From NCBI GenBank assembly GCA_963803915.1, contig CAWDOL010000015.1, positions 140,013 to 204,012 on the forward strand: a DNA stretch of 64,000 bases. The letters run 5' to 3'. Positions within the stretch are counted from its first letter, which is position 1, and every line of letters begins with the position of its first letter. Below, piece after piece: positions 557 through 63,408 of the stretch. Source of the stretch: Candidatus Aminicenantes bacterium (lineage in GTDB: Bacteria; Acidobacteriota; Aminicenantia; Aminicenantales; UBA4085). The notes under the pieces were generated by a model, which was not told the origin of the DNA, did no database searches, and worked only from the letters and a program-made list of their open reading frames with translations. Position numbers and translations under genes: made by a program.

Positions 557-611
557 ATCGGGCCAACATCATAAAAAGCACCGCTGGGGGGCAGGGGTGA
601 TCGCCGGAATC

Positions 612-3134: not shown

Positions 3135-3246
3135 GGCTTCAAATGCTCCCGCGCGCTTCTACATTTTGGTCGTCGGCCTGCTCGGCATGATCAGCTTCAT
3201 CGCGGTGGTCATGATCCTGATCACCGGCAAGACTTGACCCTCCGGT

Positions 3247-22330: not shown

Positions 22331-22561
22331 TCAGCTCTCGATCCCTTTGTCGTTCACGGCTTTGACGGTCACGACCAGGGATTCGCCCTTCCTGAACTGA
22401 AAGCCCGACAGAGCTGCCAGCGGTTCCTTGACCGTGACCGTCGCGGCGCCGGGAGAGGAACCGGGCCCATAGGTCGCGATATAAGAGACGATTTCCTTCG
22501 CCGGGCTCGGTGACCAGGCTGCTTCGGCCGTCCCCTTTTCGTATATTTCGCAAATTGACAT
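22331..22561 (-). pseudogene. Terminal fibronectin-type-III-like domain, 5'-truncated gene fragment
   Basis: ..AAWSPSPAKEIVSYIATYGPG..VTVKEPLAALSGFQFRKGESLVVTVKAVNDKGIES* fits an Fn3 pattern (W.P....I.SY.I.Y....L.G...G....V.V.AVN..G.S). The frame closes exactly where repeat DR1 and the low-GC island begin. Confidence 0.4.
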
Positions 22562-22599
22562 TGCCGAGCCGCCGGAAGTATATTCCCGGTGTGGTCAAA
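22552..22599 (+). promoter_or_regulatory. Promoter-like direct repeat DR1 (TTGACA-N18-TATATT)
   Basis: AAATTGACA..TATATTCCCGG.GTGG.CAAA matches 25198-25245 at 39 of 48 positions. TTGACA is at 22555-22560 and TATATT at 22579-22584. Weaker similarity continues to about 22625. Confidence 0.35.
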
Positions 22600-22639
22600 C
22601 GGAGGGATTCATCGGTCGGTGCGGGAATTCGCCATGCCG

Positions 22640-24983: not shown

Positions 24984-25077
24984 CGGGAGGATGTAGGAAT
25001 CGAACCTACCCGGCCCCTTCGTCAGAAGCCGTGCCGGATTAAAGAGTCCGGAGGGCCAGCAGGCCCCATGCCCTCCC
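24984..25077 (-). pseudogene. Pseudo-tRNA-Sec (degenerate full-length copy of selC)
   Basis: 94 nt, collinear with selC at 53199-53292. The anticodon loop is 8 nt (CTCTTTAA instead of CTTCAAA, plus-strand 25039-25046). The D-stem 3' strand has lost a base (GGCCC vs GGCCCC). Confidence 0.7.
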
Positions 25078-25197
25078 GTTGAATTGGCAGTCGGCTAAAA
25101 ACCGATCGTATTCTATCCGGCAGGATGCTCCAAGCTAAAAGGGGGAGCGAGGTCATCGGAGAGATGACGGAAAGGGGTGTGAAGAATTAGCTGGCTG

Positions 25198-25245
25198 AAA
25201 TTGACACCGTCGAGCGGCAGGGATTATATTCCCGGCGTGGCCAAA
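25198..25245 (+). promoter_or_regulatory. Promoter-like direct repeat DR2 (TTGACA-N17/18-TATATT)
   Basis: Copy of DR1. TTGACA is at 25201-25206 and TATATT at 25225-25230. Lies upstream of a gene relic and esterase copy 1. Confidence 0.35.
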
Positions 25246-25261
25246 GGGGCATCGGCGTGAT

Positions 25262-25387
25262 GGAGTCTCCGGTGTTCAGTCCGGCGGGCGTTCGCACGGG
25301 CACGTTCTATCCGTCTGGCGCAAGGAATCGGACGGGAAGTGGCGTATCGTGTTCGACTCGGGCTGCCCGCCCTGTCAGGGGCAGTAG
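25262..25387 (+). pseudogene. Possible relic of a DUF4440/SnoaL-like gene 3' end
   Basis: Translation ..GHVLSVWRKESDGKWRIVFDSGCPPCQGQ* resembles the typical C-terminus (..VW.K..DGKW.I..D) of NTF2-like DUF4440 proteins. No credible N-terminal part. Confidence 0.25.
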
Positions 25388-25423
25388 GCCGCGGCCCCCT
25401 TCCGGCTATTGTGAGCTTGCAAA

Positions 25424-27253
25424 ATGAAAGAAAAAACGAGTGTCTTCATTCCCACACGGAAAGAGGAATATGGAAAAAGACGAGTCCGTTTAATATCGGG
25501 TTTTCTCCTATCAGGGCTTCTGTTCGGATCGCTGCTCCAGGCCCAAGTCCGGCCGGCTCATGTTTTCGACCACAACATGGTGTTGCAGCGCGACAAACCG
25601 GTCAGAATCTGGGGCTGGGCGGCACCGGATGAGAAGGTAAAAGTCGAATTCGGAGGACAAGTTAAGTCAACGGTTGCCAACCCGCAGGGTGAATGGTGCG
25701 CCTGGCTGGATGCCATGAGCGCAAACGCTCAACCGTCGGATATGAGAATTTCAGGCCGGGCGAGCTCCGTGCGGTTCACAAATGTTCTGGTCGGAGATGT
25801 CTGGGTTCTGGGAGGTCAAAGCAATATGGAATTTGACCTGGCCCGGATCTTCCACGGTGACGCGGAAATTCTATCGGCCCATTTCCCATTGATTCGCCTG
25901 ATGACCGTACCCAGCTCGGCCGATCTGAAGCCCCAAAAAGACTTTGAACGCATCAATGAGTACGATAGCTGGCTCGACCGGTATGACAAAAAGGGATTCT
26001 GGTTTGTATGTTCGCCGGAAACGGTTCCCACGTTCTCGGGAATAGGCTATGTCTTCGGCAGGCGCCTCCATCTGGCCGCTCAAGTTCCCATCGGCTTAGT
26101 GGACGTATCATTGGGCGGCACCACCGTCGAGGCCTGGCTTTCTCCGCAGACGTTAAGCAAAATGCCCGAAAACAGCTCCTTGCTGAAGCAATGGAATGAA
26201 AAAGCGGCCCATTATGATCCGGATAAGGATCTCAAGGAAAAAATCAAGAACTGGGAGACTCGAAGCGCGGAGAGGCTAAAAAAGGGCCTGGAGACGGAGC
26301 CGAAACCCGTTGCGCCTTCTCCCCATCCCGCTTTTGACCGAAATTTCCCCGGTTCATCCTATACGGGGATGGTCTCCGTGATAGCCGGGCTGGCCATAAA
26401 AGGAGTCGTGTTTCATCAGGGATACAATAATGCGCTTGAAGATTCCCGTCCCAAGCAGTATGCCTCCAACTTCAAGGCGCTGATCAACGATTGGAGGGAA
26501 ACGTTCAAGGACGCGAATTTGCCCTTTGGCATCATCGAGTTCAGCGCCGGCGGTGAACCGCAAACGCTCGATAATTACGAGGTCAGGATGCTGGATCCGT
26601 CACCGTTTGTTCGGGAGGCACAGTTTAACGCCTTTCGGACTGTCCCCCTTACCGGATTTGTTTGCTCCTATGACCAGCAGGTCAACTGGTACCATCCCCA
26701 GAAAAAGATGGAAGCCGCCGAAAGGATGGCGCGTTGGGCTTTGTCGACGCAGTATGGTTTCAACCTTAAATGGGAGCCGGCCGTTTGCACTAATGTTGAA
26801 AGACGAAAAGATAAAATCATCATCACCTTCGATAAGGAGGTCAAGGCTTCCGATGACCGTCCTTTCGAAGGCTTCTCAACGGCGGGAAGCGATGGCCGTT
26901 TCTTTCCCGCCCAAGCGGCCTATGTGACGACAAAAAATGAAAAAGGGCAGCCGGTATTCGACAAGAAAAAGATCGAAGTGTGGACTAGCCTATGTGCCGA
27001 TCCGGTTGAGGTCCGTTATGCCTGGGCCCGAAATCCGTTGGGAAATCTGGTTAGCTTGGAGTGCCCGATCATTCCCGTGCCGCCGTTTCGAACCGATGAT
27101 TGGAGCTATCCCGAGGCTCCTTATCAAGCGGATGAGTACGCGGCTCATAGAATTCGAATGAAAGAAATGCGAAGGCAGGCGGAAGAGCTGGCACGGCTCA
27201 GGATCCTTCGGGAGGCCGAACAAAAATTGAACGAGAGAGAAGAATTGAAATGA
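25424..27253 (+). CDS. Sialate O-acetylesterase family (SASA/DUF303, SGNH-like), copy 1
   Basis: 609 aa with a signal peptide. Hallmark VGDVWVLGGQSNMEFDL, then GGTTVEAW and VVFHQGYNNA. Near-identical paralog at 57849-59654. Confidence 0.85.
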   Translation: MKEKTSVFIPTRKEEYGKRRVRLISGFLLSGLLFGSLLQAQVRPAHVFDHNMVLQRDKPVRIWGWAAPDEKVKVEFGGQVKSTVANPQGEWCAWLDAMSANAQPSDMRISGRASSVRFTNVLVGDVWVLGGQSNMEFDLARIFHGDAEILSAHFPLIRLMTVPSSADLKPQKDFERINEYDSWLDRYDKKGFWFVCSPETVPTFSGIGYVFGRRLHLAAQVPIGLVDVSLGGTTVEAWLSPQTLSKMPENSSLLKQWNEKAAHYDPDKDLKEKIKNWETRSAERLKKGLETEPKPVAPSPHPAFDRNFPGSSYTGMVSVIAGLAIKGVVFHQGYNNALEDSRPKQYASNFKALINDWRETFKDANLPFGIIEFSAGGEPQTLDNYEVRMLDPSPFVREAQFNAFRTVPLTGFVCSYDQQVNWYHPQKKMEAAERMARWALSTQYGFNLKWEPAVCTNVERRKDKIIITFDKEVKASDDRPFEGFSTAGSDGRFFPAQAAYVTTKNEKGQPVFDKKKIEVWTSLCADPVEVRYAWARNPLGNLVSLECPIIPVPPFRTDDWSYPEAPYQADEYAAHRIRMKEMRRQAEELARLRILREAEQKLNEREELK

Positions 27254-27282
27254 ACGCGTGAGCAACGACGTTCGTCTCTCGT

Positions 27283-30153
27283 TCATAGGATGTTATCCAG
27301 CGTCTCCCAATTGAGCGAGTGAGCTGGCTCAAAGCGCTCCGAGCCGGCGTAGCGCAGCAGGCTGTGCATCAGCTGGCGCGCCTCGGGATGGTCCTGAAGC
27401 GCCGGCAGGTCGCTGGCGCAGACCAGCAGCTTGCCCCGGCCGACTTTGGCCTCGAAGAGCAGGCCCAGCTTGTGATTGCGGGCGAAGTTGTCGATGACAT
27501 GAATGATCGGGCGATAATCCGCCGGGGTTTCGTCCAAGATGATCGGCCGCGAGTTCTTGACGATGGGCCACCACTGCCAGTTGCTGTGAAACTCCGTCGG
27601 AAACTCCGCCAGCGCGGGATGGCTCGGATCGCAGAGGAACCCCTGCGTACCCGGCGCCGGCTCGATGTTTTGCGCCAGGGCGGCTTTCGCGAACATGGGC
27701 CAGCACCAAAAGTCGGTGGCAAACGCGCCGCCCACGGTGTGCTTGGGATCGTTCGTCCGGGAAAACAACAGGACCTTTCCGCCCTCGGATAGGAATGTCC
27801 GCGTCGTCGCGTCGAGGCGATTCGTCACCAGAACTTCCTTGAGCGTGCTGGTATCAACCTTGGGCGGAAAGACCCAGAGGTCATAGCTGTTGCGGCAATC
27901 TGTTCCCTCGATGGCGATGGTCAGCTTGACCTGGCGCGGGGCCTTGACCCGGTTCAGCGCAGCTTGTATCGGCCCGACGGAACCAAGCCCTCCCTCCTTG
28001 ATCGTCAGCGGTCCCAGCGCTCCCTCCGCGATCGGCGAGCCTTCGCCATCGCGGAGGGTCCAGTTCACACGGGCTTCGTGGAGGTCGGCCGGGCCATAGT
28101 GGGCAACCCTGACCTCGCCGGTGAAGGTTTCGTCCGTGGTCCAGGCGTATTTCTCCAGCAAGAGGAGCGGCACGGTTTCGCTGCAAAACTCCCGCCATTT
28201 GTCCGGCCTGGTGATTCCCTTCGACTCCATGAACACGTTCAGCATCCCCACCAGCGCCGTTCCCTGCCCGGGGAAATCCATCAAGTCCAGCCAGTGAAAA
28301 CCGCTTAATCCGGGCGTGCGCAACGCGGCCTCGAGGTCCTCGCGCTGGCAGATGGCGGCCAAGGCGCCGGAGGCCCGCAGGAAGTCGTGGGAGAGATCCA
28401 GCATGCCGGCGTCCCGCAGGCGCTGCTGAAAGATCTCCAGGTTCCGCGCCTTGAGCACGCCCGTGTATTTCGGGATCTCGCGAAAGTCCGGGGCCATCGC
28501 GAATTCGGCGATTTCGTGGCTGATGACCGGCACCGGCACGTCCTGGATCGATTCGTCGTAATTCACCAGGGACGAAGGCGGACGGCTGTCGATGTGGCCG
28601 CCTTGGGGGAAATCGCCGGCGAAGAACGCGCCGCGCACGGGCAGGTTCTTTCCGGTCTTGCCCGTCACCCAGAAATCGTCGCCTTCCGCGTAGCTCGGAT
28701 CCCAATGGTTGTTGTTCGCCCCTTGGGCGTAGAGTCGGCGCGGATCGCGCTTTTGAAAGCGGGCCACCAGCTCGAACATGGCCGGCTTGCGCTCGAGCTC
28801 GTTGCCGAGCGTGAATAGGACGAAGGACGGGTGATTGCCGAAATGCCGGAAGATCAATTCGGCCTCGCGCAGCGCGTAGTCGTACAGCGAGGCGTTGGGG
28901 TCGGCGCCCGGCACGTCAAGATAGTCGATGTTCCGCTTGGCCGCCTCCGTGCTCTCGGGCGCCTGGAACGCGCTGCGCTTGTTGGGCAGCTCGACCTGGA
29001 AATACATCCCCAGCTCATCCGCCGCCGCGAAGGCGGCCTCGGGGGGGCACCAGGAATGAAAGCGGACGTGGTTGAGCCCCCAATCCTTGAGAATCCCCAA
29101 AACCCGCAGCCAGCCGGCCTTGTCCATGGGCGGATAGCCGGTCAGTGGATAGTTGGCGCAGTCCAGCCGCCCGCGCAGAAAGATCGTCCGCCCGTTGATC
29201 GCAAGCCGCTGCCTGTCCCGCTTGAAATCGCGCAGCCCGAAGCGGACGGCGCGTTGATCGGTAAAGGACTGCCCGCCGGCGACGGCGGACAACCGCAATT
29301 CCAGCCCCAGCATGGCCGGCTGAAACTCATCCCACAGCGGCGCCGCTTCGCCCGGCTGATAGATGAACTCGACCCTGTTGCGCGCTTCCGGCGCCTGCAC
29401 GACGATGGATTGTGCGGCGAAGTCCGCCGGCCTGACGACATTGGCGCTCCGGCATTGCAGCGCCAGCTCTCCGGTCGCCGGCTGCCCCGTCACATTCCCC
29501 ACCACCACCCGGACGCGCGCCTGCTTGCCGGCCGCGTCGGGATAGACCTGCACGTCCTCGATCCAGACCGGGTCCGTGGCGCGGAGCTCGAGCCGGCCGA
29601 TGATGCCGTTCCAATTGGTCTGGGTCCGCTCGTCCACCGCGTGGGAGGGCCCGACCGGCGGCAGCTTGGCGTTGTCCACCAGCACGGTTATCGTGTGGCG
29701 ACCGAGCCTGAGAGCGCGCGTAAGGTCAAAAACCTGCGGGGCGCTGAGCGTGTCGTCGGCGCCGCAATCCCCGTCATCCACCCATACCCGCGTGCTCTTG
29801 GTGCGCTCCAGCAGCAGGGTGATCCGCTTGCCTTGCCAAGCCTCGGGAATGACCACCTCGCGCTGATACCAGGCGGGGCCTTTCCAGTACCAGACGCGGG
29901 AGAGGCGATCTTCAGCCCGCTCGTCCTTGAGCTCCCCCTTGTGATTGGTGTCGGTCGTGCCGGGCAGGGTCACCGAGTCATCCAGCTTCTCGGCGAACCA
30001 CCTCATCGCGACGCCGGTGTTGTGCGGATCCAGACGGAATTGCCAGGCGCCGGCCAGGGGAATGGTGTTCGCCGGGGGAAGAGCCGCTGGGCCGTGGGCG
30101 GCTGCCAAGCTCAGGTACGCGATGGACACAAGCCAGGCCGTTATCTTGGGCAT
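27283..30153 (-). CDS. Glycoside hydrolase family 2-like enzyme (sugar-binding + TIM-barrel), secreted
   Basis: The ATG at 30153 gives signal peptide MPKITAWLVSIAYLSLAAAHG. Motifs: WYWKGPAWYQREVVIPEAWQGKRITLLLERTKSTRVWVDD and LNHVRFHSWCPPEAAFAAADELGMYFQVELPN. The 100 codons upstream in the ORF track look non-coding. Confidence 0.75.
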   Translation of the reverse strand: MPKITAWLVSIAYLSLAAAHGPAALPPANTIPLAGAWQFRLDPHNTGVAMRWFAEKLDDSVTLPGTTDTNHKGELKDERAEDRLSRVWYWKGPAWYQREVVIPEAWQGKRITLLLERTKSTRVWVDDGDCGADDTLSAPQVFDLTRALRLGRHTITVLVDNAKLPPVGPSHAVDERTQTNWNGIIGRLELRATDPVWIEDVQVYPDAAGKQARVRVVVGNVTGQPATGELALQCRSANVVRPADFAAQSIVVQAPEARNRVEFIYQPGEAAPLWDEFQPAMLGLELRLSAVAGGQSFTDQRAVRFGLRDFKRDRQRLAINGRTIFLRGRLDCANYPLTGYPPMDKAGWLRVLGILKDWGLNHVRFHSWCPPEAAFAAADELGMYFQVELPNKRSAFQAPESTEAAKRNIDYLDVPGADPNASLYDYALREAELIFRHFGNHPSFVLFTLGNELERKPAMFELVARFQKRDPRRLYAQGANNNHWDPSYAEGDDFWVTGKTGKNLPVRGAFFAGDFPQGGHIDSRPPSSLVNYDESIQDVPVPVISHEIAEFAMAPDFREIPKYTGVLKARNLEIFQQRLRDAGMLDLSHDFLRASGALAAICQREDLEAALRTPGLSGFHWLDLMDFPGQGTALVGMLNVFMESKGITRPDKWREFCSETVPLLLLEKYAWTTDETFTGEVRVAHYGPADLHEARVNWTLRDGEGSPIAEGALGPLTIKEGGLGSVGPIQAALNRVKAPRQVKLTIAIEGTDCRNSYDLWVFPPKVDTSTLKEVLVTNRLDATTRTFLSEGGKVLLFSRTNDPKHTVGGAFATDFWCWPMFAKAALAQNIEPAPGTQGFLCDPSHPALAEFPTEFHSNWQWWPIVKNSRPIILDETPADYRPIIHVIDNFARNHKLGLLFEAKVGRGKLLVCASDLPALQDHPEARQLMHSLLRYAGSERFEPAHSLNWETLDNIL

Positions 30154-30298
30154 CGTCTTGGATCTTCCGTGTGCTTCGGAGCTTTCATCGGCTAAGCCTC
30201 CCTGCAGAGAGATTCTGCCAGAAAACTCACATGGTGTCTGTATCCGTTTTGCGGGATAAGGTCCGCGTCTGTTTATCCGGATGTTCGAGTTCGCCCGC

Positions 30299-30327
30299 TT
30301 GACTTCCATCCACCGCTCCCATAAATT
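30299..30327 (+). promoter_or_regulatory. Sigma70-like promoter candidate for the 30367 gene
   Basis: TTGACT (30299-30304), a 17-nt spacer, then TAAATT (30322-30327), about 40 nt upstream of the ATG. Confidence 0.35.
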
Positions 30328-30366
30328 GAAAAGGCTCGCCATTGCGAAGAGAAGAGGGATCGGATC

Positions 30367-31593
30367 ATGAAGGTAGACAAGCTTTTCTCGGCCCTTCTCT
30401 CGGCCGGCCTTGCCGCGCTGCTCGTTCTTTCCCTTTCTCCAGGCCTGAACGGACAATCCGGGAGCGACGCCTCACGGCTGCTCGGCAAATGGTCCGGACG
30501 AACGGAGTTCGGCCAGCTCGTCCTTGAGTTCCGTTCCGCCACCCAGCTCGTCTTCGAGGGCGACGTCGTGAGCTATAAGCTGCTCCCCGGAATCATCCGC
30601 ATTGAGGATGAGGACGGAACGACTGATTATCGCTACGCCTTCCGCGGCGACACGCTCGTCGTATCCTTCCCGGAGGGTATCCAGGTTGAGTTCACCAGAC
30701 TCGGTGCCCCTCCGAAACCCCTGCCTGCCCCGCTCGCGGGAACAAAGCCCGGCCGGTCTGAGCCGACGCCGTCGGCCGCAGGTAGGGGAGCGGAAATCGG
30801 CGCCCCGGGCATCGCCTCCTCGCCGCAGATCGGGGCCGGAGAAGCAGGGGATGCCGGATGGGGATTCAAGTTCCAGCCGCCTGCCGGCTGGAAGTTCCAG
30901 AGCTCGCCAGAAGGCATCTTCCTGGGCCACGACACGGTTGCCGGGATGATCCTCGTCCTCCCTCACACGGCCGCGAACATCCAAGCCGTCCGGGAGCAGA
31001 TGATGCTGGGGCTCCACGAAGAGGGCCTGGACCTCACGCCGGCCGGGGGCTTGCGCCCTGCGGGGGCATCGGCCCTGGCCGGGGACTATGAAGGCGTCGT
31101 CCAGGGCGGGCAGGCCAAAGCCCTCGGTCTCGGGACTCTATCGCCGTTCGGCGGCGGCGCTTTCATTGTCGCGCTGACCACACCCGAGAAGTTTGGCCGG
31201 GAGCTGCCCGCGGCAGCCGAGACAATCGCCCGAAACATGAGGTACTTTCGCGTCGAAGCCTCCGAGGTCATGAGCCACTTCGCCGGCACTTGGGTTACGA
31301 TGACCAAAAGCACGGAGACGCGCTTCACCCTGACGCCCGCGGGTGAGTTCTACTCCGGCTACGAAGCGAGCTATTCAGGACGGTTCGACGATGGCGGCGC
31401 GTGGGGGACGGCAAGCAACAGCAGCGATCGCGGGCGCTGGACCGTTCGCGGCGACAAGCGGCAGGGCCAGATCATCCTCACCTATTCGAACGGCCGTCAA
31501 GTTCAGATTCCGTACAGAGTCCAAGTCGAGAGGGGGGAGACATTCTGGAACGAGTACTGGTTCAACGGAGATCTTTATGGAAGACGGCGATGA
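30367..31593 (+). CDS. Hypothetical secreted protein
   Basis: 408-aa ORF with a signal peptide (LSAGLAALLVLSLSPGLNG) and coding-like composition. No family motif recognised. Confidence 0.5.
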   Translation: MKVDKLFSALLSAGLAALLVLSLSPGLNGQSGSDASRLLGKWSGRTEFGQLVLEFRSATQLVFEGDVVSYKLLPGIIRIEDEDGTTDYRYAFRGDTLVVSFPEGIQVEFTRLGAPPKPLPAPLAGTKPGRSEPTPSAAGRGAEIGAPGIASSPQIGAGEAGDAGWGFKFQPPAGWKFQSSPEGIFLGHDTVAGMILVLPHTAANIQAVREQMMLGLHEEGLDLTPAGGLRPAGASALAGDYEGVVQGGQAKALGLGTLSPFGGGAFIVALTTPEKFGRELPAAAETIARNMRYFRVEASEVMSHFAGTWVTMTKSTETRFTLTPAGEFYSGYEASYSGRFDDGGAWGTASNSSDRGRWTVRGDKRQGQIILTYSNGRQVQIPYRVQVERGETFWNEYWFNGDLYGRRR

Positions 31594-49901: not shown

Positions 49902-52900
49902 TCAGTTCTTCGGTTTGGCGGCAAGCCGCTTCATCAGCTCCGCGACCGCCGCTTTCAGCTGCCGATCGATGCCGGCGGCTACTTCCTCCGGCCGGTTGCC
50001 GACCTCGATATCGGGCGCGATGCCTTCGTTCTCGATCGTCCCCTTGCCCTCCGCGGGGTAGACGAGCACACCGCCGTCGATAAGCCGCATGCCTCCGGTG
50101 GAGGCCAGGCTGCCCGCCGTCCGCAAGCCGATGATGGGGCCCATGTCCCACTGGCGGAAGATGGCCGCGAACGTCTCGCCGCTCGACTCGACGCTCTCGT
50201 TGATCAGGCAGGCCTTGATCCCGCAAAACACGGGTTCGGGCTCGGCGATCGAGGCTTTCCCGTGCGGAAGGGAAGACCGGAAGATCATCCTGCGGTTCAG
50301 TCGCTCGAGCATCCAGACGGGCGAGTATCCGCCGCTGTTGTACCGGATGTCCAGGATGATGCCTTCCTTATGAAGCAGGGCGGGGGCATGGCGGAAGAAC
50401 GCGGCGATGCCCGAGGTATACGTGTCGGGAAGATGGAGATACCCGATCCGGCCTCGCTCTCCTTGTCCACCGCATCGCGGTTGCGCGAAACCCAATCCTC
50501 ATAGCGGAGCTGATCGCCCTCGCGTTCCGAGTAAGCCGCCGGTCTTGTGGTCAGATGCCGGGCGCCCTCCAGGGTCGGCAGGGCGTTCAGTGTGACGACG
50601 ACGTCTTGTCCCGCCTTATCGAGAAGAAAGGCATCGGGATTGACGCCCTCTTGAAGGGGCTGGCCATCGATTGCCAGGAGATATTCCCCCTCCCGGACAT
50701 CCATGCCCGGGAGAGCCAGGGGGCCGATCGAATCCGGATCCCCGCTCCGCCCGCGAAAGACGTGGGCGATTTTATAGAGACGGGTCGCCGGATCCGGCTC
50801 CAGATCAATACCCAGCAGTCCGTGGCTGCGATGGACCGGGTTGGGAATATCGCCGCCGGAGATCTCCAAATGGCTGTGGCCGAGCTCGGAGAACATCTCT
50901 TCCAGGAGATAGTTAAGGTCCTGGCGGGAGGCCACATGCGGAAGCAGAGTCTCGTATCGGAGCCTGACGGCCGACCAATCGACGCCTCGCATCTTTTCGT
51001 CGTAAAAGAAATCCCGCACGATGCGCCACGCTTCCCGAAAGATCTGAGACCACTCTTTTCGGGGATCGAGACGCAGGCGCAGCCCGGAAAGGTCCAAGCG
51101 GCCGTCGTCGGCAACCCGCGCCGTCTTGAGGTCGAGAACGCTGATCCCGCCGTCTCCCCGGTAGGCGGCTACCGCCGAACGGGCCGCGGGGATCAGAAAG
51201 TAGGCGTCGCGGCTGAGGATCGTCTCCTCCTTCGAGGCCATGGCGAAAAGCTTGAAGCACGATTCGCCCCCGGCCGGAGACGATCTGTAGATCAACCCGC
51301 CCGCGACGGCCCGCAGGGAATCATAGGATGAATCCGGCACGGGCAGAGCCATGGCCCTGCCGCCCAATCCGTCGACATCGATCCGCAGCGGCGCCGCCCC
51401 GGCTTCTTCGCCGGCAGGCGCGGCGCTCTTCATCCCCGGGGCAAAAGGCGACATCGCCTCCCGCCGCAGGGTCGCCGCCACGATCGTCGAGGGGTTGACC
51501 ATGTGATGATCGCCGTCCCAGAACGAATCCTCCACATTGATTCGGCTGTCCGAAATCCAATACAGAAAAAGGCCGGCGGCGTCGAATTGCGGATTCGAGG
51601 CGTTCGCGGAGCCGTCGGTCACGCGGAAAGACCGATCCTGGTCGAGGGAATAGAGATAGACCGAGCCAAGCCAGTTGGGGTTGCCCAGAGTGTAGGTCAG
51701 CCAGCGGCTGTCGGACGACCAGGTGGCCGAGGCGAACGGCAGCGAGCCCTGATAGGCATTGAAGAAAACTTTCTTCACGGCGCGGGTCTCGAGATCGAGG
51801 ATGTAATAGGCGGCCCGATGATCGGCGAAGCCGATTTTGCGGCCGTCGGGCGACCAGCTTAAGGGGCCGATCCTTCCGGCTTCGCAGGAGCTGACCTGTT
51901 CTGCTTCCCGGCTTCCTTCCGCCCAGCCGAGATAGATCTGATCCTCCCCCGTGACGTCGGAGACATAGGCGTAGCTTCCCCCCATGGGGTTCCATTGCGG
52001 GTATCGCTCATAGGCGCCGGGCGTCCGGCTCGCATTTCGGGTGGTCTTCCGGTCGAGATCCAGGAGGAACAAGTCCCCCCTCGCGTTGAGTATCAGCTTG
52101 CGGCCGTCAGGGGAGATGGCGGGGGCTCCGGAGACGAACTTTTCGACGCTGATTTCGCTCGCTTTCGGGAGATCGGCGGACCCTGGAATTTCGATCCGGA
52201 CCGGGTGAGAGGTCCCTTTCCGGACGTCGAAAATCTGGATCTGTCCGGCGTTTTCGAAAACGATCCGGTCACCGCCCCGACTCGGCCAGCGGACGGGCCA
52301 GTCTTTGAAAAAAGTCCCCTGAAAGACCTGGCCGGCTTTGAGGTCATGCACCCATAGGTTGGGTACGCGACCTTCGCCTCTATCGCTGACGAAGAAGAGG
52401 CGATCCCCGCACCATATCGGATGGTTGTTGACGGAGGCATCGGCGATGATCCGTTCCGAGCTTCGTCCGGCTAAGTCGTACGTCCAGATTTCGGCCCCGG
52501 CTCCGCCGCGATATCCCTTGATCGGACGATCGAGGCGGGTCCGGCAGAAGGCGACCTTATCTCCGGCCGCGTTGAAGTCGGCCAGATCCGCCTCCGGCAG
52601 CTCCAGGACCTGGACCAGACCGCCCCGGGCCGGAACGCTATGGAGCCGGTTGATCCGGTAGGAAACGCTGTCGGCGTTGGAGCGGAACACAATGGTTTTT
52701 CCGTCGCGGCTCCAGTCGACGACCCACTCGTCGGCCGGATGATACGTCAGCCGCCGTGGTTTCCCGCCCGTGACGGGCATGACATAGATGTCTTTATTCC
52801 CCTCGAACTCCGCGGTGAAGGCGATCTGCCGGCCATCGGGAGAGAATTTCGGCAGGATCTCCTCGCCGGGAAAGTCGGTGAGGTGTTGGGCACTGCCGCC

Positions 52901-53092
52901 CTGGACCGATGAAAGGTAGACATCGCCTCCATGGCAAAAGACAAGGCGATCCCCATGGATGTCGGGATATCGCAGGAGCTTCGTCTCCGCGGCCAATCCT
53001 GCCGCTGCCCCTGCCCATCCCAGGCCTATCGCGAGAATCCATTTTTCGATTCCTACTAACCGCATTTGCAGACTCCTTCTGTCCTTATTCAA
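49902..53092 (-). pseudogene. Tricorn-like protease (TolB-type propellers + PDZ + S41 peptidase), one frame break near 50452
   Basis: N-terminus YPDIHGDRLVFCHGGDVYL..FSPDGRQIAFTAEFEGNKDIYVM. After ..AVDKESE the S41 domain continues in the 197-aa ORF frame (GRIGYLHLPDTY..LDIRYNSGGY..SSGETFA..). One nt is missing. Confidence 0.8.
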
Positions 53093-53198
53093 CGACGGAT
53101 ATGTGTTTAGACGTGGGCGAGAGGCTTTAAGTTGCGCCGGGCCGGAAAAGAACCAGATGTCTGGGGAGGGATTTGCCGGCGTTTCGGGAAAGGTGGAG

Positions 53199-53292
53199 CG
53201 GGAGGATGTAGGAATCGAACCTACCCGGCCCCTTCGTCAGAAGCCGCGCCGGATTTGAAGTCCGGAGGGGCCACCAGGCCCCGTGCCCTCCC
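53199..53292 (-). tRNA. selC: tRNA-Sec (anticodon UCA)
   Basis: Reverse complement: GGGAGGGC-AC-GGGGCC-TGGT-GGCCCC-T-CCGGA-CTTCAAA-TCCGG-(24-nt variable arm)-GTAGG-TTCGATT-CCTAC-ATCCTCCC-G. It has a long acceptor stem, a 6-bp D-stem with a 4-nt loop, a long extra arm and discriminator G. CCA is not encoded. Confidence 0.85.
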
Positions 53293-57692: not shown

Positions 57693-57725
57693 TTTGAAGT
57701 CTGGAGGGGCCACCGGGCCCCGTGC
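57693..57725 (-). pseudogene. Fragment of selC (anticodon loop to D-arm only)
   Basis: TTTGAAGTCTGGAGGGGCCACCGGGCCCCGTGC compares with TTTGAAGTCCGGAGGGGCCACCAGGCCCCGTGC at 53254-53286. The acceptor, variable and T arms are absent. Confidence 0.6.
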
Positions 57726-57767
57726 TTTTCTTTATAAGTCCATCCGGTGGGAACAAGGAACATGTGC

Positions 57768-57796
57768 TTGAAGAGTCCCGACTCGTGGTCTACAAT
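57768..57796 (+). promoter_or_regulatory. Sigma70-like promoter candidate for esterase copy 2
   Basis: TTGAAG (57768-57773), a 17-nt spacer, then TACAAT (57791-57796), about 50 nt upstream of the ATG at 57849. Confidence 0.35.
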
Positions 57797-57848
57797 CGCA
57801 CCAAGTCCCAAGGCTTTTTCGGGTTTATGCTTCCGGAGAAAAAGGCGC

Positions 57849-59654
57849 ATGCACACGCGGAAAGAGGAATATGGAAAAAGACGAGTCAATTTATTATCAG
57901 GTTTTCTCCTATCAGGGCTTCTGTCCGGATCGCTGCTCCAGGCCCAGGTCCAGCCGGCTCATGTTTTCGACCATAATATGGTGTTGCAGCGCGACAAACC
58001 GGTCAGAATCTGGGGCTGGGCGGCACCGGATGAGCAGGTAAAAGTCGAATTCGGAGGACAAGTTAAGTCAACGGTTGCCAACCCGCAAGGTGAATGGTGC
58101 GCCTGGCTGGATGCCATGAGCGCAAACGCTCAACCCTCGGATATGAGAATTTCAGGCCGGGCGAGCTCCGTGCGGTTCACGAATGTTCTGGTCGGGGATG
58201 TTTGGGTTCTGGGAGGTCAAAGCAATATGGAGTTTGACTTGGCCCGAATTTTCCACGGTGACGCGGAAATTCTGTCGGCTCATTTCCCCTTGGTTCGCCT
58301 GATGACCATACCCAGTTCGGCCGATCTGAAGCCCCGTAAAGACTTTGAACGCATCAATGAGTACGACAGCTGGCTCGACCGGTTTGACAAAAAGGGATTC
58401 TGGTTTCCATGTTCGCCGGAAACGGTTCCCACTTTCTCAGGAATAGGCTATGTCTTCGGCAGGCGCCTCCATCTGGCCGCTCAAGTTCCCATCGGTTTGG
58501 TGGACGTATCATTGGGCGGCACCACCGTCGAGGCCTGGATCTCTCCGCGGACGCTCATTAAAATGCCCGAAAACCGTTCCCTGCTGAAGCAATGGAATGA
58601 AAGAGCGGCCGACTATGATCCGGATAAGGATCTCAAGGAGAGAATCAAGAACTGGGAGACTCGAAGCGCGGAGAGGCGGGAAAAGGGCCTGGAGACGGAG
58701 CCTAAGCCCGTGGTACCTTCTCCCTATCCCGCTTTTGACCGGAATTTTCCCGGTTCATCCTATACGGGGATGGTGTCCGTGATAGCCGGGCTGGCCGTAA
58801 AAGGCGTCGTGTTTCATCAGGGCTATAATAATGCCCTTGATGATTCCCGGCCCAAGCAGTATGCATCCAACTTCAAGGCGCTGATCAACGATTGGAGAGA
58901 AACGTTTCAGGATGCGAATTTGCCCTTCGGCATCATTGAGTTCAGCGCCGGCGGGGAACCGCAAACCCTCGCTAATTACGAGGTCAGGATGTTGGATCCG
59001 TCGCCGTTTGTTCGTGAAGCGCAGCTTAACGCCTTTCGGACTGTTCCCCATACCGGATTTGTTTGCTCCTATGACCAGCAGGTCAACTGGTACCATCCCC
59101 AGAAAAAGGTGGACGCCGCCGAAAGGATGGCGCGTTGGGCTTTATCGACGCAGTATGGTTTCAGCCTCAAATGGGAGCCGGCCCTTTGCACGAATGTGGA
59201 AAGACGGAAAGATAAAATCGTCATCACCTTCGATAAGGAGGTGAAAGCTTCCGATGACCGGCCTTTCGAAGGCTTCTCCACGGCGGGGAGTGATCGCCAT
59301 TTCTTTCCTGCCCAAGCGGCTTATGGGATGACAAAAAATGATAAAGGGCAGCAGGTATTCGATAAAAAAAGGATTGAGGTGTGGAATAGCCTATGTGCTG
59401 ATCCGGTCGAGGTCCGCTATGCCTGGGCCCGAAATCCGTTGGGAAATCTGGTTAGCTTGGAGTGCCCGATCATTCCCGTGCCGCCGTTTCGAACCGATGA
59501 TTGGAGCTATCCTGAAGCTCCTTATCAACCGGATGAGTATGCGGCTCATAGAATTCGAATGAAAGAAATGCGAAGGCAGGCGGAAGAGCTGGCGAGACTC
59601 AGGGTCCTTCGGGAGGCCGAACAAAAATTGAACCAGAGAGAGAGACTGAAATAA
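57849..59654 (+). CDS. Sialate O-acetylesterase family (SASA/DUF303), copy 2
   Basis: Collinear with 25424-27253 with scattered substitutions (LVRLMTIPSSADLKPRKDF vs LIRLMTVPSSADLKPQKDF). Has GGQSNMEFDL. Nt homology starts at 57852 / 25453. Confidence 0.85.
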   Translation: MHTRKEEYGKRRVNLLSGFLLSGLLSGSLLQAQVQPAHVFDHNMVLQRDKPVRIWGWAAPDEQVKVEFGGQVKSTVANPQGEWCAWLDAMSANAQPSDMRISGRASSVRFTNVLVGDVWVLGGQSNMEFDLARIFHGDAEILSAHFPLVRLMTIPSSADLKPRKDFERINEYDSWLDRFDKKGFWFPCSPETVPTFSGIGYVFGRRLHLAAQVPIGLVDVSLGGTTVEAWISPRTLIKMPENRSLLKQWNERAADYDPDKDLKERIKNWETRSAERREKGLETEPKPVVPSPYPAFDRNFPGSSYTGMVSVIAGLAVKGVVFHQGYNNALDDSRPKQYASNFKALINDWRETFQDANLPFGIIEFSAGGEPQTLANYEVRMLDPSPFVREAQLNAFRTVPHTGFVCSYDQQVNWYHPQKKVDAAERMARWALSTQYGFSLKWEPALCTNVERRKDKIVITFDKEVKASDDRPFEGFSTAGSDRHFFPAQAAYGMTKNDKGQQVFDKKRIEVWNSLCADPVEVRYAWARNPLGNLVSLECPIIPVPPFRTDDWSYPEAPYQPDEYAAHRIRMKEMRRQAEELARLRVLREAEQKLNQRERLK

Positions 59655-59682
59655 ACACAAGGCTTACGACGTCCGTCTCTTG

Positions 59683-59803
59683 TTCATAGGCAGAGGAACC
59701 CCTGCGTGCCCGGCGCCGTCTGGCCCGGCTGATAAATGAACTCGACCCTCTTGCGCGCATCCGGAGCCTGCACGACGATGGATTGCGCGGCGAAATCCGC
59801 CGG
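59683..59803 (-). pseudogene. Deletion-riddled remnant of the GH2-like gene
   Basis: 59683-59690 matches 27282-27289 (stop region). 59691-59718 matches 27632-27659. 59723-59803 matches 29350-29430. The intervening 342 bp and 1690 bp, and everything 5' of 29431, are missing. Confidence 0.65.
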
Positions 59804-59836
59804 CACGGCGACACCGGCTTTTCCAAAGCCGCCTTG

Positions 59837-61348
59837 TTATGCCCTGGTGATGGCGTTCGAGAATCCGGTAATGCGGCCAATCCAGGCGATGAAGGCCTCC
59901 GGGTCCTCATTGGCGCCGTGCCCGGCGTCCCAGTACAGCCGGGCGTTCACGCCCATGCCTCGGTTCTCGAGACGGGCGGCCAGGTTGGCAAAAACGGTCT
60001 GCGACGTGTGATTGTCGGACGTGCCCTGGCGAAGCCACCAGTGCTTGGCGCAGCGGTTGTCGTCCCGACCGATGAAGTCCATGGCGTTCATCATGCTCAC
60101 CACCGTCTTCAGGTCGTCGCCGATTTCGGCGCTCTTGTCGCCGGTGGTGTTCCGCAGGCTGAAGTCGGTGAAATGCCTAGCGTTGGTCGTCTTGTCGCCG
60201 AAGAGGATGGTCTCGGGCTGCTTCAGATCGAAATCGTCGAAGGCGGGCAGGGCTTTCATCCGGCCGGCATGGGCGACGAAATCCGCGAAGGTAAACGAGG
60301 CTCCCTTGTCCGTCCAAGCAAGCCACGGGTTCCCGGCCAGATATTCCTTGCGCTTCTCCTCGGCCAAGCTTCGAAGATACTTGTCGGCCGCGGGAATCAG
60401 GTATGTTTGCAATAGGTAAGCGCCGTAGTTATCCGCGGTGATGGCTCCGAAGCCGTTTCTGCCCTCGAGGTTCAGGGCCGCCAGATGCTCGGCGAAGGCG
60501 GCTTTCAGCCGCTTGGACAGCTCCTGGTCCACCAAGCCTGATCGAGCCGGCACGGTGCCGTACATCCATTCATAGGCCATGTCGGCGTGATCCAGGTCGG
60601 TGATGGGGCAGAAGCAAGCACCGGCGAAGATATCGTCGTCCGCGTCGGCGGCGCCGATCTCTCTGAGATAGGCGTCGAAGAGAGGGTTGTTGCCGGACGC
60701 GCCGAGAAGAGCCGAGAGGGCGCCGCCCGCGCTCACGCCGGTCGAGACGATATGATCGACGTTCCCGGGCACGATGCCCTTGTTGTGGCGCAGATAGCGG
60801 ACGGCGGCCTTCAGGTCGACGATGGCGGCCGGCGCCTTGCCGTAGTAAGTGCCGTCGGCGGCCTTGTTGTCGCGTCCGCGGCAGCCCGGCGCCACTACCA
60901 CATAGCCTGCGGCCAGGGCCAGATCGGCGTTGCCGCTGATGCCGGTCCCGCCGGCAAGTCCGCGCATGCCCCGCCCTCCCGAGCCCCCGGCCGCGTTATT
61001 CACGGACATATAGCCGCCGACCCCGATGACGAAGAGGATGGGGGCGTTCGCGGCGTCGACCGCCGCTTCGCCGACCTTGACGGGAGCGCTGACGTTCAGG
61101 CTCTGATAGTCTTTGTCCACGGGGTTCGCGACATAAGGAATGTGTATATAGGAGCGGTAGGTGACTGTCTTGTCGCCCGCCGAGGTTTTGACCGTCTTGG
61201 TTTCCAGGGTGAAGCTGTCCTTGGGAAACAGCAAGGGATCCTGGGCCCGACTCGGGGGTGCGTCGATTGCCTTTCCCGATATCGGCGACAAGCAGAAGGC
61301 GACGACGAGCAGGGTGAGAACTGTCGAGAGATGCCGTGTCGTAATCAT
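59837..61348 (-). CDS. Subtype-B tannase-like alpha/beta hydrolase (TanB-Lp-like), secreted
   Basis: ATG at 61348 with a signal peptide. It is collinear, from memory, with Lactobacillus plantarum tannase: VVVAPGCRGR, DLKAAVRYLRHN, STGVSAGGALSALLGASGN, CPITDLDHADMAYEW, ALPAFDDFDL, AKHWWLRQG. Confidence 0.7.
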   Translation of the reverse strand: MITTRHLSTVLTLLVVAFCLSPISGKAIDAPPSRAQDPLLFPKDSFTLETKTVKTSAGDKTVTYRSYIHIPYVANPVDKDYQSLNVSAPVKVGEAAVDAANAPILFVIGVGGYMSVNNAAGGSGGRGMRGLAGGTGISGNADLALAAGYVVVAPGCRGRDNKAADGTYYGKAPAAIVDLKAAVRYLRHNKGIVPGNVDHIVSTGVSAGGALSALLGASGNNPLFDAYLREIGAADADDDIFAGACFCPITDLDHADMAYEWMYGTVPARSGLVDQELSKRLKAAFAEHLAALNLEGRNGFGAITADNYGAYLLQTYLIPAADKYLRSLAEEKRKEYLAGNPWLAWTDKGASFTFADFVAHAGRMKALPAFDDFDLKQPETILFGDKTTNARHFTDFSLRNTTGDKSAEIGDDLKTVVSMMNAMDFIGRDDNRCAKHWWLRQGTSDNHTSQTVFANLAARLENRGMGVNARLYWDAGHGANEDPEAFIAWIGRITGFSNAITRA

Positions 61349-61481
61349 GGAAGCCCCCTCTACTGGTGGTCCATCTGAAGAGATCCCAGTCAAGCGTAAA
61401 CGCAATAAGGCCATCAAGAAGGGCAACTTGAACCCATACAAAGCGACCGATCGCCATCCCAAGGACAGATAATCCCGTCGA

Positions 61482-63408
61482 TTATTTAAGGACGTGGGCG
61501 TCGCCGCTGCGGCGGGTCAGCTGCGTTTTATCCAGGTATTCCAGGACGGCGCAGGCGTACTTGCGCGAGACCTTGAGCACGTCCTTGGCCTCGGCGATGG
61601 TGATCGAGCGGCGCAGCTTGAGGAACTGGAGCACGGCCGTCTTGGCCTTCTCCAGGGCTTCCTTATGCATCGTGACCTTGGGATCGATGCGCACGAGAAC
61701 GCCCTGCTGGGCCAGCGTGCCCATGATCTTGCGGAATTGGTTGAGGGGCAGGCGCAGCTCCTTGACCACGTCGTCCTCGAGGGGCGGCTCGAAGGCGGCC
61801 CGCTTGAAGATCGCCTCGACCTTGCGGGCCAGGTCCTGATCCTTGTCGACCAGCTTGGCTTGGTGGCCGGGCAGGTTGACGCCTCCCTCGAGGCGGACGA
61901 TGGCCTGGGCGGAGGCGAGGGCGTCTAGGCCTTGGCGCAGCACCGCGTCGCCCGTCTCCCGCCCAAGGGTCGAGGCCAGGTCGGCCGAGGGCATGAACGG
62001 CTTATGGGGATTGTCGGTCAGGTACTTCTTGATCGAAGCGTAGGCCTTGTCTCGCAACGCAGCGAATGCCTCGGCGGGCATATATCGATCGTCCTTCTCG
62101 CCTTTGATCCTGACCAGGCGGCCGGAGGGGATGAGGCCGTCCACGGCGGCGCGGATGATGGCGGTCGTCTTCCCCAGAGCGAGCGAGACGTCTTCGATGG
62201 CGAGCGCCTTGGCCGGATCCTTGCGGAAGAACTGATCGACGGCCTCGGGGAAGGCTCCCTCGAACTTGCGGATTCCGGCCAACGCCGCCTCGTCGAATCT
62301 CTTATGGCGCGCCGGTGAGACGTCGAGCACCTCGCCGCCGCCGATCGTGTTGAGGGGCGAGAACGTGCGGATGATGAAGCGGTCGCCGAAGAGGGCGGTC
62401 GTGGGCGCTTCCAGGACGAACTGGGCCAGCATGGTCTCGCCCGGCAGCATCTTCTCCTTCTCCAGGAGCACGACCCGGGCGATCGTCTCGTCCGTGCCGA
62501 CGTGGAAGCGGACGCGGTCGCGGGTTTTAAGCTCGATGTCCGCGTTCTGGAGCAAGCGCAGGCGGGCGTCGAGCCTCTGCGTCGGCTTCGAAGAACCCGG
62601 GCCGGGCGGCGCATTGGCCGCGCCGCAAGGCGTCCTTCTCTACGTCGTGGATGTTGAGGGCGGTGCGGCGGCCGAGTCCCGAGGCTTCCTGCTTGGACTT
62701 GTGGACCTGGACGCCGCGGATCCGGGTTTCGATCCTCTCGGGCAGGATCTCGATCTTGTCGCCGACTTTCACTTCGCCCGACAGCACCGTCCCGGCGATG
62801 ACCGTGCCGAAGCCGTGCTTGACGAAGACGCGGTCGATAGGCATACGGAAGTAGCCGCAGTCGTCGCGCCTGTCCACGCGCCGGCCGGCCGCCTTCAGCG
62901 CCTCGACCAGGGCGGGCAGGCCCGCTCCCGTATGGGCCGAGACGGGCATGATGGGCGCCTGTTCGAGGAAGGTGCCGGCGACAAAGCCGCGCACCTCGGC
63001 CGTCAGGGCTTCGATGCGCTCCTCGTCCACGAGGTCGGATTTGGACAGGACGATGATGCCCTCGCGCACCGAGAGCAGCCTCAGGATGTCGAAGTGCTCG
63101 CGAGTCTGGACGGAGATGCCCTCGTCGGCGGCGATGACGAACAGCACGGCGTCCACGTTGGAGGCGCCGGCGACCATGGTCTTGACGAACTTCTCGTGGC
63201 CGGGGACATCGATGAAGACGATCTGCTTCTCGTAGTCGGGCAGATCGAGAAAGACGAACCCGAGCTCGATGGTCATGCCCCGCTCTTTCTCCTCGGGCAG
63301 GGTGTCGGGGTCGGTGCCGGTCAGGGCTTTGACCAGGGCGGATTTGCCGTGATCGATGTGGCCGGCGGTGCCGACGATGACGTGGGGCTTTTCGCTCATC
63401 GGGGTCAT
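61482..63408 (-). pseudogene. selB: Selenocysteine-specific elongation factor SelB, one frame break near 62586
   Basis: GTPase motifs GTAGHIDHGKS, DVPGHEKF and SKSD. After ..RGQCAARPGFFE the protein continues in another frame (PTQRLDARLRLLQNADIELKTRDRVRFHVGT..) through the winged-helix C-terminal domains. There is one extra nt (GAA-G-CCG). Confidence 0.85.

Follow-up and report, generated by a model that had tools for sequence, protein, structure and literature searches.

How did an enzyme gene come to lie twice in one genome, once beside an intact partner and once beside scraps of it, and which of the two genes has been kept? This question is raised by a stretch of 64,000 nucleotides from a Candidatus Aminicenantes bacterium (assembly GCA_963803915.1, contig CAWDOL010000015.1, positions 140,013 to 204,012), hereafter the window, in which two blocks each hold an esterase gene (est1 or est2), sequence of a GH2-family glycosidase gene and, nearby, a sequence derived from selC, the gene for tRNA-Sec. 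A first-pass annotation, made from the letters alone, had read the second block as a decayed duplicate of a selC-esterase-GH2 unit and as a natural experiment on which gene is under selection.

Two esterases and one surviving partner

The esterase and GH2 sequences of the two blocks, with the gene that follows the second, are:

25424-27253, plus strand: est1, SASA/CE20-like carbohydrate O-acetylesterase, 609 aa, signal peptide, GC ~53%
27283-30153, minus strand: intact GH2-family glycosidase, 956 aa, convergent with est1 (Pfam PF02837/PF02836)
57849-59654, plus strand: est2, intact paralogue of est1, 601 aa counted from the ATG
59655-59690, plus strand: copy of the est1-GH2 intergenic sequence and the last 7 nt of GH2, from self-BLAST
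59690-59721, minus strand: GH2 remnant b, matching 27631-27662 (30/32, E 1.5e-5 in a small search space)
59711-59827, minus strand: GH2 remnant c, matching 29338 to ~29454
59837-61462, minus strand: BD-FAE / S9-type esterase gene (Pfam PF20434), in the place expected for the 5' part of the second GH2

Self-BLAST and a repeat search of the window aligned 25447-27289 (est1) with 57848-59690 (est2) over 1843 ungapped nucleotides, i.e., with no indel in either copy. Amino-acid identity is 92% and dS is 0.25, so the earlier description of est2 as near-identical was too strong, whereas its description as intact holds, both reading frames being open. The assembly, 76% complete, contains no further copy, and a tree joins the two as sisters with support of 100/100 and a long stem in common. 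The homology begins eight codons inside est1 rather than upstream of it; est2 starts at an ATG that arose from ATT at the position of est1 codon 9, and its frame is open from a GTG at 57747.

The nucleotide identity and dN/dS that the first-pass annotation had proposed as checks are 92.1% and, across every segment and pair, 0.13-0.19 (0.15 for est1-est2 overall). With both reading frames intact and dN/dS in this range, both esterases are under purifying selection. Both copies retain the signal peptide, the serine motif GQSNM and the aligned catalytic histidine, and a relative-rate test found no significant difference between est1 and est2 (19 vs 10 derived residues, p=0.14). Exact-protein look-ups with est1 and est2 returned no match on record. 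The practical value of the locus is chiefly for annotation: the source record calls both genes 126 codons short, and the GH2 scraps and selC pieces should be marked as pseudogenic.

As had been claimed, the two copies have different promoter-like sequences upstream, which are unrelated to one another:

25201-25230, plus strand: TTGACA-18-TATATT, upstream of est1
57768-57796, plus strand: TTGAAG-17-TACAAT, upstream of est2

The first lies in a dispersed repeat family with at least four further copies in the genome. Divergent from est2 is a sulfatase gene with a likely start at an ATG near 57557 and a twin-arginine signal.

A second esterase-GH2 block decayed by deletions is borne out by the 1843-nt homology and two collinear GH2 islands, which have the orientation of the intact gene (minus strand). 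The homology extends from the esterase across the intergenic sequence and on into GH2, so the two genes would have been duplicated as a single unit. The core of remnant c (59711-59818 vs 29338-29445) is 87% identical over 108 nt, with weaker similarity to ~59827/29454, and its E-value of 7e-28, with that of remnant b, answers the earlier concern that matches this short might be insignificant. Three islands had been proposed and we find two scraps; the reported deletions stand, and amount to 341 nt (27290-27630), ~1686 nt and everything 5' of ~29454. Remnants b and c join at an 8-nt microhomology, CGGCGCCG (59711-59718), i.e., at the ~1686-nt deletion, and the homologies at the two GH2 deletion junctions are 1 nt and 8 nt. 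Where the 29350-29431 core differs from remnant c, the differences are all at third codon positions (6/6), so that the second GH2 probably stayed functional for long and disappeared only late, an argument that rests on six sites.

The intact GH2 matches PDB 8u01 with an E-value of 2e-176 and has native GC. Its best homologue within the genus is only 57% identical, and its only named relatives are Lentisphaerota, Sumerlaeota and Planctomycetota MAGs.

Origin and predicted function of the esterase

The foreign origin of the esterase escaped the first-pass annotation. Its GC is 52-55% against 62-68% in its surroundings (~53% vs ~65%), and its nearest homologues, 74-80% identical, lie in Bacteroidota MAGs inside polysaccharide loci, whereas same-genus relatives hold homologues of only 33-36% identity. 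Composition and similarity show that the gene was acquired from Bacteroidota. There, the homologues are part of co-directional GH106-SASA-GH127-sulfatase loci, of which one includes a SusD gene, and a search of their flanks found neither the GH2 of the window nor PD40 genes. The GH2 orthologues examined elsewhere had no SASA neighbour. The esterase-GH2 pairing is thus lineage-specific, as it was not found beside any examined homologue of either gene in other organisms, apart from the orthologous cassette of a close relative on the metagenome contig described below.

Both proteins belong to the PF03629 (SASA) family, with 55 and 54 bits against a curated cut-off of 24.8. Est1 matches PDB 9h4u with an E-value of 6.5e-54, and the E-values to CE20 structures (9h4u and 7kmm) span 1e-50 to 1e-55. 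The CE20 esterases Fl8CE20_II (PDB 9h4u) and XacXaeA-type (PDB 7kmm) have been described (PMC12313940). With these, est1 and est2 have in common the SGNH/SASA domain, the GQSNM block with the nucleophile serine (GGQSNMEF in both copies) and an aligned catalytic histidine, that of NWYHP, which aligns with H515 of Fl8CE20_II (residue numbers from PMC12313940). They differ from Fl8CE20_II in having ~46 residues between the aligned halves, where the latter has an inserted ancillary beta-sandwich domain of ~180 residues, and in an extra charged C-terminal tail of 49 residues; the Asp of the CE20 DxH block is Trp here (NWYHP). We therefore predict that est1 and est2 are sugar-deacetylating, SASA/CE20-like acetylesterases.

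A counterpart of the first block and the mosaic structure of est1

The first block lies within a unit with a counterpart elsewhere:

25188-30340: cassette K, 5.15 kb, comprising the promoter-like repeat, a short relic ORF tail, est1, the convergent GH2 and 187 nt upstream of GH2

Positions 172-5325 of L053, a Logan contig from an independent metagenome, match this cassette at 94.7% identity, with a single gap in 5154 nt. The match ends sharply at either border, beyond which the two contigs have unrelated flanks. L053 (sequencing run SRR22388161) was reached through a protein cluster look-up. The first block is thereby independently supported, and it is the only one with such a counterpart; a metagenome scan with est2 gave homologues of at most 74% identity and no second close relative. 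The 171 nt upstream of the left end of the cassette in L053 are a dispersed repeat without selC, in which an Rfam scan found no match, whereas the window has a pseudo-selC in this position.

Comparison of the three esterases revealed that est1 is a recombination mosaic, its 5' 0.7 kb grouping with est2 and its 3' 1.1 kb with L053 (p<0.0005). The maximum chi-square of 21.5 was reached in 0/2000 permutations, with a breakpoint near 26152, to the left of which est1-est2 dS is 0.16 and to the right 0.31; est1-L053 dS shows the reverse. Incompatible site patterns among the three sequences are thus clustered in the manner of gene conversion or homologous exchange, to which local consensus errors or strain mixing could contribute, given the many frame breaks elsewhere in the assembly. 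Two histories account equally for the three-way divergences. In one, the duplication preceded the split from the L053 lineage, and est1 was converted by est2 afterwards; in the other, it is more recent than that split, and est1-GH2 received an L053-like allele from outside. As est1 is a mosaic, the pair is not a simple clock-like experiment.

tRNA-Sec-derived sequences and the selB neighbourhood

The first-pass annotation had recognised two selC sequences. There are three, in direct orientation, the intact one, which had been missed, lying between the two blocks:

24985-25077, minus strand: pseudo-selC, full-length tRNA-Sec-like (ARAGORN, fold, alignment; Rfam RF01852, 47.4 bits against a gathering score of 47)
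53165-53197, minus strand: ancestral selC 3' flank, homologous to the 3' flank of selC in the relative G007
53198-53292, minus strand: intact selC, tRNA-Sec with anticodon UCA (ARAGORN; Rfam, 75 bits)
57693-57725, minus strand: selC 5' fragment, tRNA positions 7-39, 31/33 to intact selC
61482-63408, minus strand: selB, in two frames (61482-62555 and 62527-63408)

In a functional tRNA-Sec the anticodon loop is 7 nt long and contains UCA, and the 6-bp D stem is complete; the pseudo-selC instead has an 8-nt loop, CUCUUUAA, and a D stem short of one base. Over its 3' 48 nt it matches the intact selC, 28 kb away, exactly. The fragment, which lies between the divergently oriented sulfatase gene and est2, covers the D arm, the 5' strand of the anticodon stem and the anticodon loop, and its homology ends right past the loop. 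Its presence upstream of est2 had been reported and stands, whereas the claim that selC was part of the duplicated unit does not follow, given the unrelated spacers and the L053 cassette: the esterase-selC spacers of the two blocks show no similarity above shuffled controls.

Synteny in relatives, suggested earlier as a check, recovered the ancestral arrangement of selB and selC but did not fix a step-by-step history. Five relatives have selB and then selC directly, and this adjacency is ancestral; in the window the two are 8.2 kb apart. The intact selC with its 3' flank gives a contiguous 129-nt match to G007 at 90%, with 28/36 beyond the tRNA. In G007, selC is followed by a gene homologous to that at 22050-20887 of the window, relative to which the pseudo-selC occupies the position of selC in G007. 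In gene order, the genus relatives G003 and G007 are unlike one another and unlike the window. Neighbours of the intact selC are a Tricorn-type protease gene, with homologues of only 36-62% in the genus, and a cation-efflux gene. The 28 kb between the intact and pseudo-selC have 60-70% GC like the rest, low-GC stretches being confined to the esterases and 22.4-24.8 kb, and no tyrosine integrase (PF00589) was found on the 378-kb contig.

Alternative explanations

The most serious alternative is that the copied unit comprised selC, spacer, esterase and GH2, so that both selC pieces beside the esterases are paralogues from the same duplication and the spacers were remodelled later. The two blocks agree in gene order and strand, with selC on the minus strand, the esterase divergent from it and GH2 convergent with the esterase. 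The distance from selC piece to esterase homology is 370 nt in the first block and ~120 nt in the second, and two such pieces beside two esterase copies are unlikely by chance; moreover, 7 events in 95 nt separate the pseudo-selC from the intact selC, a divergence of similar magnitude to that of the esterases. We nevertheless consider this explanation possible rather than probable, as the spacers are without detectable similarity, the esterase homology begins only within est1, the border at 25188 is sharp, with the dispersed repeat of L053 (171 nt compared) where the pseudo-selC sits, and the third, intact selC demands at least one more selC duplication anyway. In having C10 and an intact anticodon loop, the fragment also resembles the intact selC, not the pseudo-selC. 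Accretion of islands by an integrase at selC, with the esterase blocks as cargo of two integrative elements that left selC repeats, is unlikely. selC is a classic integration site, and this explanation would account for three selC-derived sequences in direct orientation, for low-GC DNA adjoining the 3' end of the pseudo-selC, for the separation of the once neighbouring selB and selC, and for the break of the fragment exactly at the anticodon loop; likewise, all seven pseudo-selC differences fall in its 5' half (p ~0.007 if evenly spread). However, the contig is without a tyrosine integrase; where 3' att-type repeats would be expected, the additional sequences are one full-length copy and one 5' fragment; the esterase blocks are on the 5' side of the selC pieces; and the 28 kb between the intact and pseudo-selC are of native GC and include a gene (30367-31593) whose homologue in G007, 76% identical, lies near selC. 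Less likely still is that the 5.15-kb cassette moves without recombinase genes of its own and prefers the 5' side of tRNA-Sec genes, which, if true, would make selC a recombination hotspot by an undescribed route. The cassette is seen in three contexts (L053 and the two blocks), two of which adjoin selC-derived sequence at ~110-120 nt, and each of the three selC pieces marks a rearrangement junction on this contig without tyrosine integrase.

Two independent acquisitions of the esterase, with no internal duplication, would agree with its clearly foreign character, and est2 stands at a deep dS of 0.3 from both other esterase sequences, which would allow a separate source. This is very improbable and close to refuted by the GH2 remnants, as est2 is followed by pieces of the native-GC GH2 gene and by the intergenic sequence that also follow est1, no such neighbour is present in the donors examined, and the two esterases are sisters on a long shared stem. 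That the second block is an assembly artefact, i.e., a mis-assembled strain variant or chimeric join, is the concern with any metagenome-assembled genome as incomplete and with frame breaks as pervasive as this one, yet we give it hardly any credence: the copies differ by 8%, far more than assemblers confuse, the block has unique flanks on both sides within one contig, the esterases are free of indels, and GH2 deletions with such junction homologies are unlike graph errors. A large tandem duplication followed by decay was also considered and is unsupported, since tblastx of the window against itself shows no further old paralogy between the flanks of the two blocks. No repeats flank the copy borders.

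Proposed history

The history that we favour, and hold to be probable, is a single copying of the cassette, after which both esterases were kept, the second GH2 was deleted and the paralogues recombined. Collinearity, and the fact that each esterase is the other's closest relative, point to a segmental duplication within the lineage. A 5-kb accessory cassette, comprising a Bacteroidota acetylesterase and a convergent GH2, would have been copied once, in direct orientation and 32.4 kb away, into the rearranged selB-selC neighbourhood. From the present arrangement we infer the order of events, the copying mechanism (ectopic or illegitimate recombination, no genes of mobile elements having been encountered) and the original extent of the copy. 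Est2 would have adopted the new start codon created at the breakpoint, with both esterases remaining under purifying selection, each with its own promoter-like site, and the second GH2 probably functioned for much of the time after duplication. Deletions by illegitimate recombination would then have removed it (341 nt, ~1686 nt between 8-nt direct repeats, and the 5' third), leaving the two scraps between est2 and the BD-FAE gene. Later, the paralogues, or their alleles in related strains, would have recombined to give the est1 mosaic.

The locus illustrates neatly, and in a form that can be dated, how the enzyme repertoire of a glycan-degrading bacterium is assembled, and the gene kept in two copies is the deacetylase, not the glycosidase. 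It is a clean but ordinary case of duplication and loss, with no new principle for gene-duplication theory or selenocysteine biology.

Comparison with known systems

tRNA-linked genomic islands, e.g., at selC in Escherichia coli, have been reviewed (PMC2704930). As in these islands, partly low-GC accessory genes cluster around selC in the window, selC-derived sequences recur in direct orientation, and the ancestral neighbours (selB, selC and the downstream gene) have been pushed apart; unlike them, the window has no tyrosine integrase and the intervening DNA is mostly of native composition, and its repeats are a decayed copy of full length and a 5' fragment, not 3' att repeats. The acquisition of the esterase resembles single-CAZyme transfer out of Bacteroidota polysaccharide-utilisation loci in that the esterase alone would have been taken, and goes beyond it in that the recipient is of high GC and that the esterase was re-partnered with a GH2 and then duplicated. 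Lastly, the blocks conform to dispersed segmental duplication in general, with two direct copies sharing coding and intergenic sequence, a partner gene pseudogenised by microhomology deletions and mosaic exchange between the copies. They depart from that pattern in that the copying mechanism is not visible, that both copies adjoin tRNA-Sec-derived sequence and that the duplicated gene is a recent import from another phylum.

Results

The first-pass annotation described a selC-esterase-GH2 block present twice, with the second copy decayed by large deletions. The features concerned, with the two esterase genes named est1 and est2, are as follows.

Features of the two blocks
24985-25077: pseudo-selC, 47.4 bits, 8-nt anticodon loop
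25201-25230: promoter-like site upstream of est1, TTGACA-18-TATATT
25424-27253, + strand: est1
27283-30153, - strand: intact GH2 gene
53198-53292: intact selC, 75 bits, located between the blocks
57693-57725: selC fragment, 33 nt, 31/33 to tRNA-Sec positions 7-39, stopping right after the anticodon loop
57768-57796: promoter-like site upstream of est2, TTGAAG-17-TACAAT
57849-59654, + strand: est2
59837-61462, - strand: BD-FAE gene

Self-comparison gave a single ungapped match of 1843 nt at 92.1% identity between the est1 (25447-27289) and est2 (57848-59690) regions, and two collinear matches to the GH2 gene, one short (27631-27662 with 59690-59721, 30/32 identical) and one of 108 nt (29338-29445 with 59711-59818, 87%, E 7e-28). 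Base by base, block 2 tracks block 1 beyond the esterase stop codon, through the intergenic sequence and across the final 7 nt of GH2, then lacks 341 nt, with a 1-nt overlap at the junction, and later a further stretch of about 1686 nt whose two ends both carry the 8-nt repeat CGGCGCCG. Similarity ends at about 59827/29454, 10 nt short of the next gene's stop, and no esterase copy beyond these two occurs in the assembly. Since both comparisons and the selC-fragment match agree with them, the annotated coordinates and deletion sizes are correct, as are the different promoter-like sequences upstream of each esterase; the selC inventory placed the fragment correctly but left out the intact gene. 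The arrangement appears to be a real and well-documented but ordinary case of segmental duplication, in which an esterase-GH2 cassette acquired horizontally was copied.

Single-base frame breaks are numerous in this genome, affecting selB, a Tricorn-type protease and, just outside the window, selA and selD, and are probably homopolymer errors in assembly. They leave the esterase duplication unaffected: est1 and est2 align without indels, both mutually and with L053, an independent metagenome contig carrying the cassette, the two copies are 8% apart, and the block 2 flanks are unique within one 378-kb contig (C15). The protease adjoining intact selC (49902-53092) reads as two ORFs split near 50426-50453, and its homologues in relatives are intact. 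The genes selB (61482-63408), selD and selA (C15:208327-210662, 4-6 kb past the window end) are each split over two reading frames by a single apparent frameshift, while selC is intact; this reflects either homopolymer indel errors or the start of selenocysteine-trait loss; selC above 53 bits is missing in 5/7 same-genus relatives searched, and present in G003 and G007.

The dN/dS that had been proposed for the esterase pair was computed as 0.15, with a dS of 0.25 and 85/136 differences at third codon positions; derived residues number 19 in est2 vs 10 in est1, which is not significant. Because the est2 start codon aligns with est1 codon 9, an ATT, and the closest homologues have Ile, the est2 ATG is a derived change created at the breakpoint. 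In the larger GH2 scrap, the well-aligned core (29350-29431) has all 6 of its differences at third codon positions and only 2/27 residues of its peptide changed, which suggests, from this small sample of six, that the second GH2 stayed constrained through much of the period after duplication and was lost late through a microhomology deletion. On the + strand at 57706-57731, the complement of the selC-fragment D arm has six G-C pairs and a 4-nt loop, then GTGCTTTTCT; it scores as intrinsic-terminator-like a short way before the promoter-like site of est2, which may be chance.

L053, retrieved via cluster look-up, is a 6080-nt Logan contig (run SRR22388161) encoding a 609-aa esterase and a 956-aa GH2. 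Its positions 172-5325 match window 25188-30340 (94.7% identity, a single gap), and the borders are sharp with unrelated flanks on either side; L053 thereby confirms that the block 1 arrangement is real and defines a 5.15-kb cassette. In a three-way comparison, est1 25448-26152 groups with est2 (dS 0.16 vs 0.31 to L053), whereas 26153-27250 groups with L053 (dS 0.18 vs 0.31 to est2), as does the GH2 gene (95.7% identity). The change-point is significant (maximum chi-square 21.5, reached by 0/2000 permutations), and est1 is a recombinant, the esterase paralogues having recombined. Two histories fit: the duplication may be older than the L053-lineage split, with est2 later converting the est1 5' part, or it may be younger, with an L053-like allele replacing the est1 3' part and GH2; ω is 0.13-0.19 under either.

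Upstream of the L053 cassette, the 171 nt present on the contig hold a dispersed repeat and not selC. This family, of about 100-155 nt, has at least nine copies in this genome at 66-82% identity, including C15:244056-244138, C14:291068-292658 and 309135, C12:28261-31018, C3:210791 and 423436, and C4:119289; an Rfam scan gave no match, and it may be a repeat element or a conserved leader. The TTGACA-18-TATATT sequence at the cassette left end is one of at least five dispersed copies (window 22525-22603 and 25188-25260, C6:2452-2572, C10:10323-10390, C1:102988-103041). The copy at 25188 is shorter than the rest, so the pseudo-selC junction falls inside the repeat. The right end (30281-30340) carries an outward-pointing promoter-like TTGACT-17-TAAATT, which matches L053 at 100% as far as the border and sits 27 nt before the next gene start (30367), the gene there being different in the two organisms.

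Discussion

Both esterase genes have 52-55% GC against a background of 62-68%. Their best relatives (74-80% aa identity) lie in Bacteroidota MAGs and metagenome loci of GH106-SASA-GH127-sulfatase type, one of which carries SusD, and same-genus genomes hold only homologues of 33-36%. A maximum-likelihood tree places est1 and est2 together as sisters (support 100/100) on a long stem inside a Bacteroidota-type clade. Flanks of the Bacteroidota-type homologues share nothing with the window besides the esterase, and the neighbourhoods of GH2 orthologues elsewhere contain no SASA neighbour. Given the low GC, Bacteroidota-type relatives, sister placement and absence of the pairing around the other homologues examined, one esterase gene was imported, came to lie beside this GH2 within this lineage, and was then copied with it, a sequence of events that excludes two separate imports.

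Five relatives, drawn from four families, have selC within a few bases after selB, and the G007 selC has a 36-nt flank behind it and then a homologue of window 22050-20887. The window keeps the order and orientation of these landmarks but spreads them apart. After selB come 8.2 kb with the BD-FAE gene, GH2 scraps, est2, the selC fragment and genes for a sulfatase, a lipoprotein-like product and cation efflux; next, intact selC with the ancestral 36-nt flank and 28 kb of native-GC genes ending in GH2 and est1; and finally pseudo-selC, a PD40 stretch of low GC and the downstream gene of G007 type. A compensatory T-stem pair is common to intact and pseudo-selC and absent from G003 and G007, so these copies arose in this lineage. 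Their seven differences are all confined to the 5' half (tRNA positions 10-47; p ~0.007 if spread evenly), the 3' 48 nt being identical, and the pseudo-selC trailer is CCACACC (G007-type), that of intact selC CTCCACC; this one-sidedness and the G007-type trailer suggest a crossover or conversion tract inside the tRNA gene.

All three selC pieces are located at rearrangement junctions. That selC was duplicated along with the esterase is possible but unproven, and we hold it doubtful, since the esterase-selC spacers of the two blocks are unrelated and selC is missing from the 171 nt upstream of the L053 cassette. Integrase-driven accretion at selC is quite unlikely, as C15 carries no tyrosine integrase. 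The selC link may be an interesting coincidence or a hotspot effect.

The esterase partner, a GH2 protein of 956 aa, has 8u01 as its closest structure (E 2e-176). A database homologue 78% identical to it, P0127, carries an SGNH/GDSL esterase domain (PF13472) as a fusion, independently tying this GH2 type to a deacetylase; this fits, as only a hint, a functional link of deacetylation with the glycosidase. Database records of both esterases (25424-27253 and 57849-59654) are 475-aa products beginning at the GQSNM Met, therefore without signal peptide and catalytic serine, and are probably start-codon miscalls. In profile searches both esterases match Pfam SASA (PF03629), and they align with CE20 esterases of solved structure, 9h4u, 9ega and 7kmm (E 1e-50 to 1e-55). 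Each still has the serine-bearing GQSNM block, the catalytic histidine in aligned position (residue roles from PMC12313940) and a signal peptide. Because, in comparison with Fl8CE20_II, they are without most of its inserted ancillary domain and bear a charged C-terminal tail, CE20 subgroup membership is not proven and we describe them as SASA/CE20-like.
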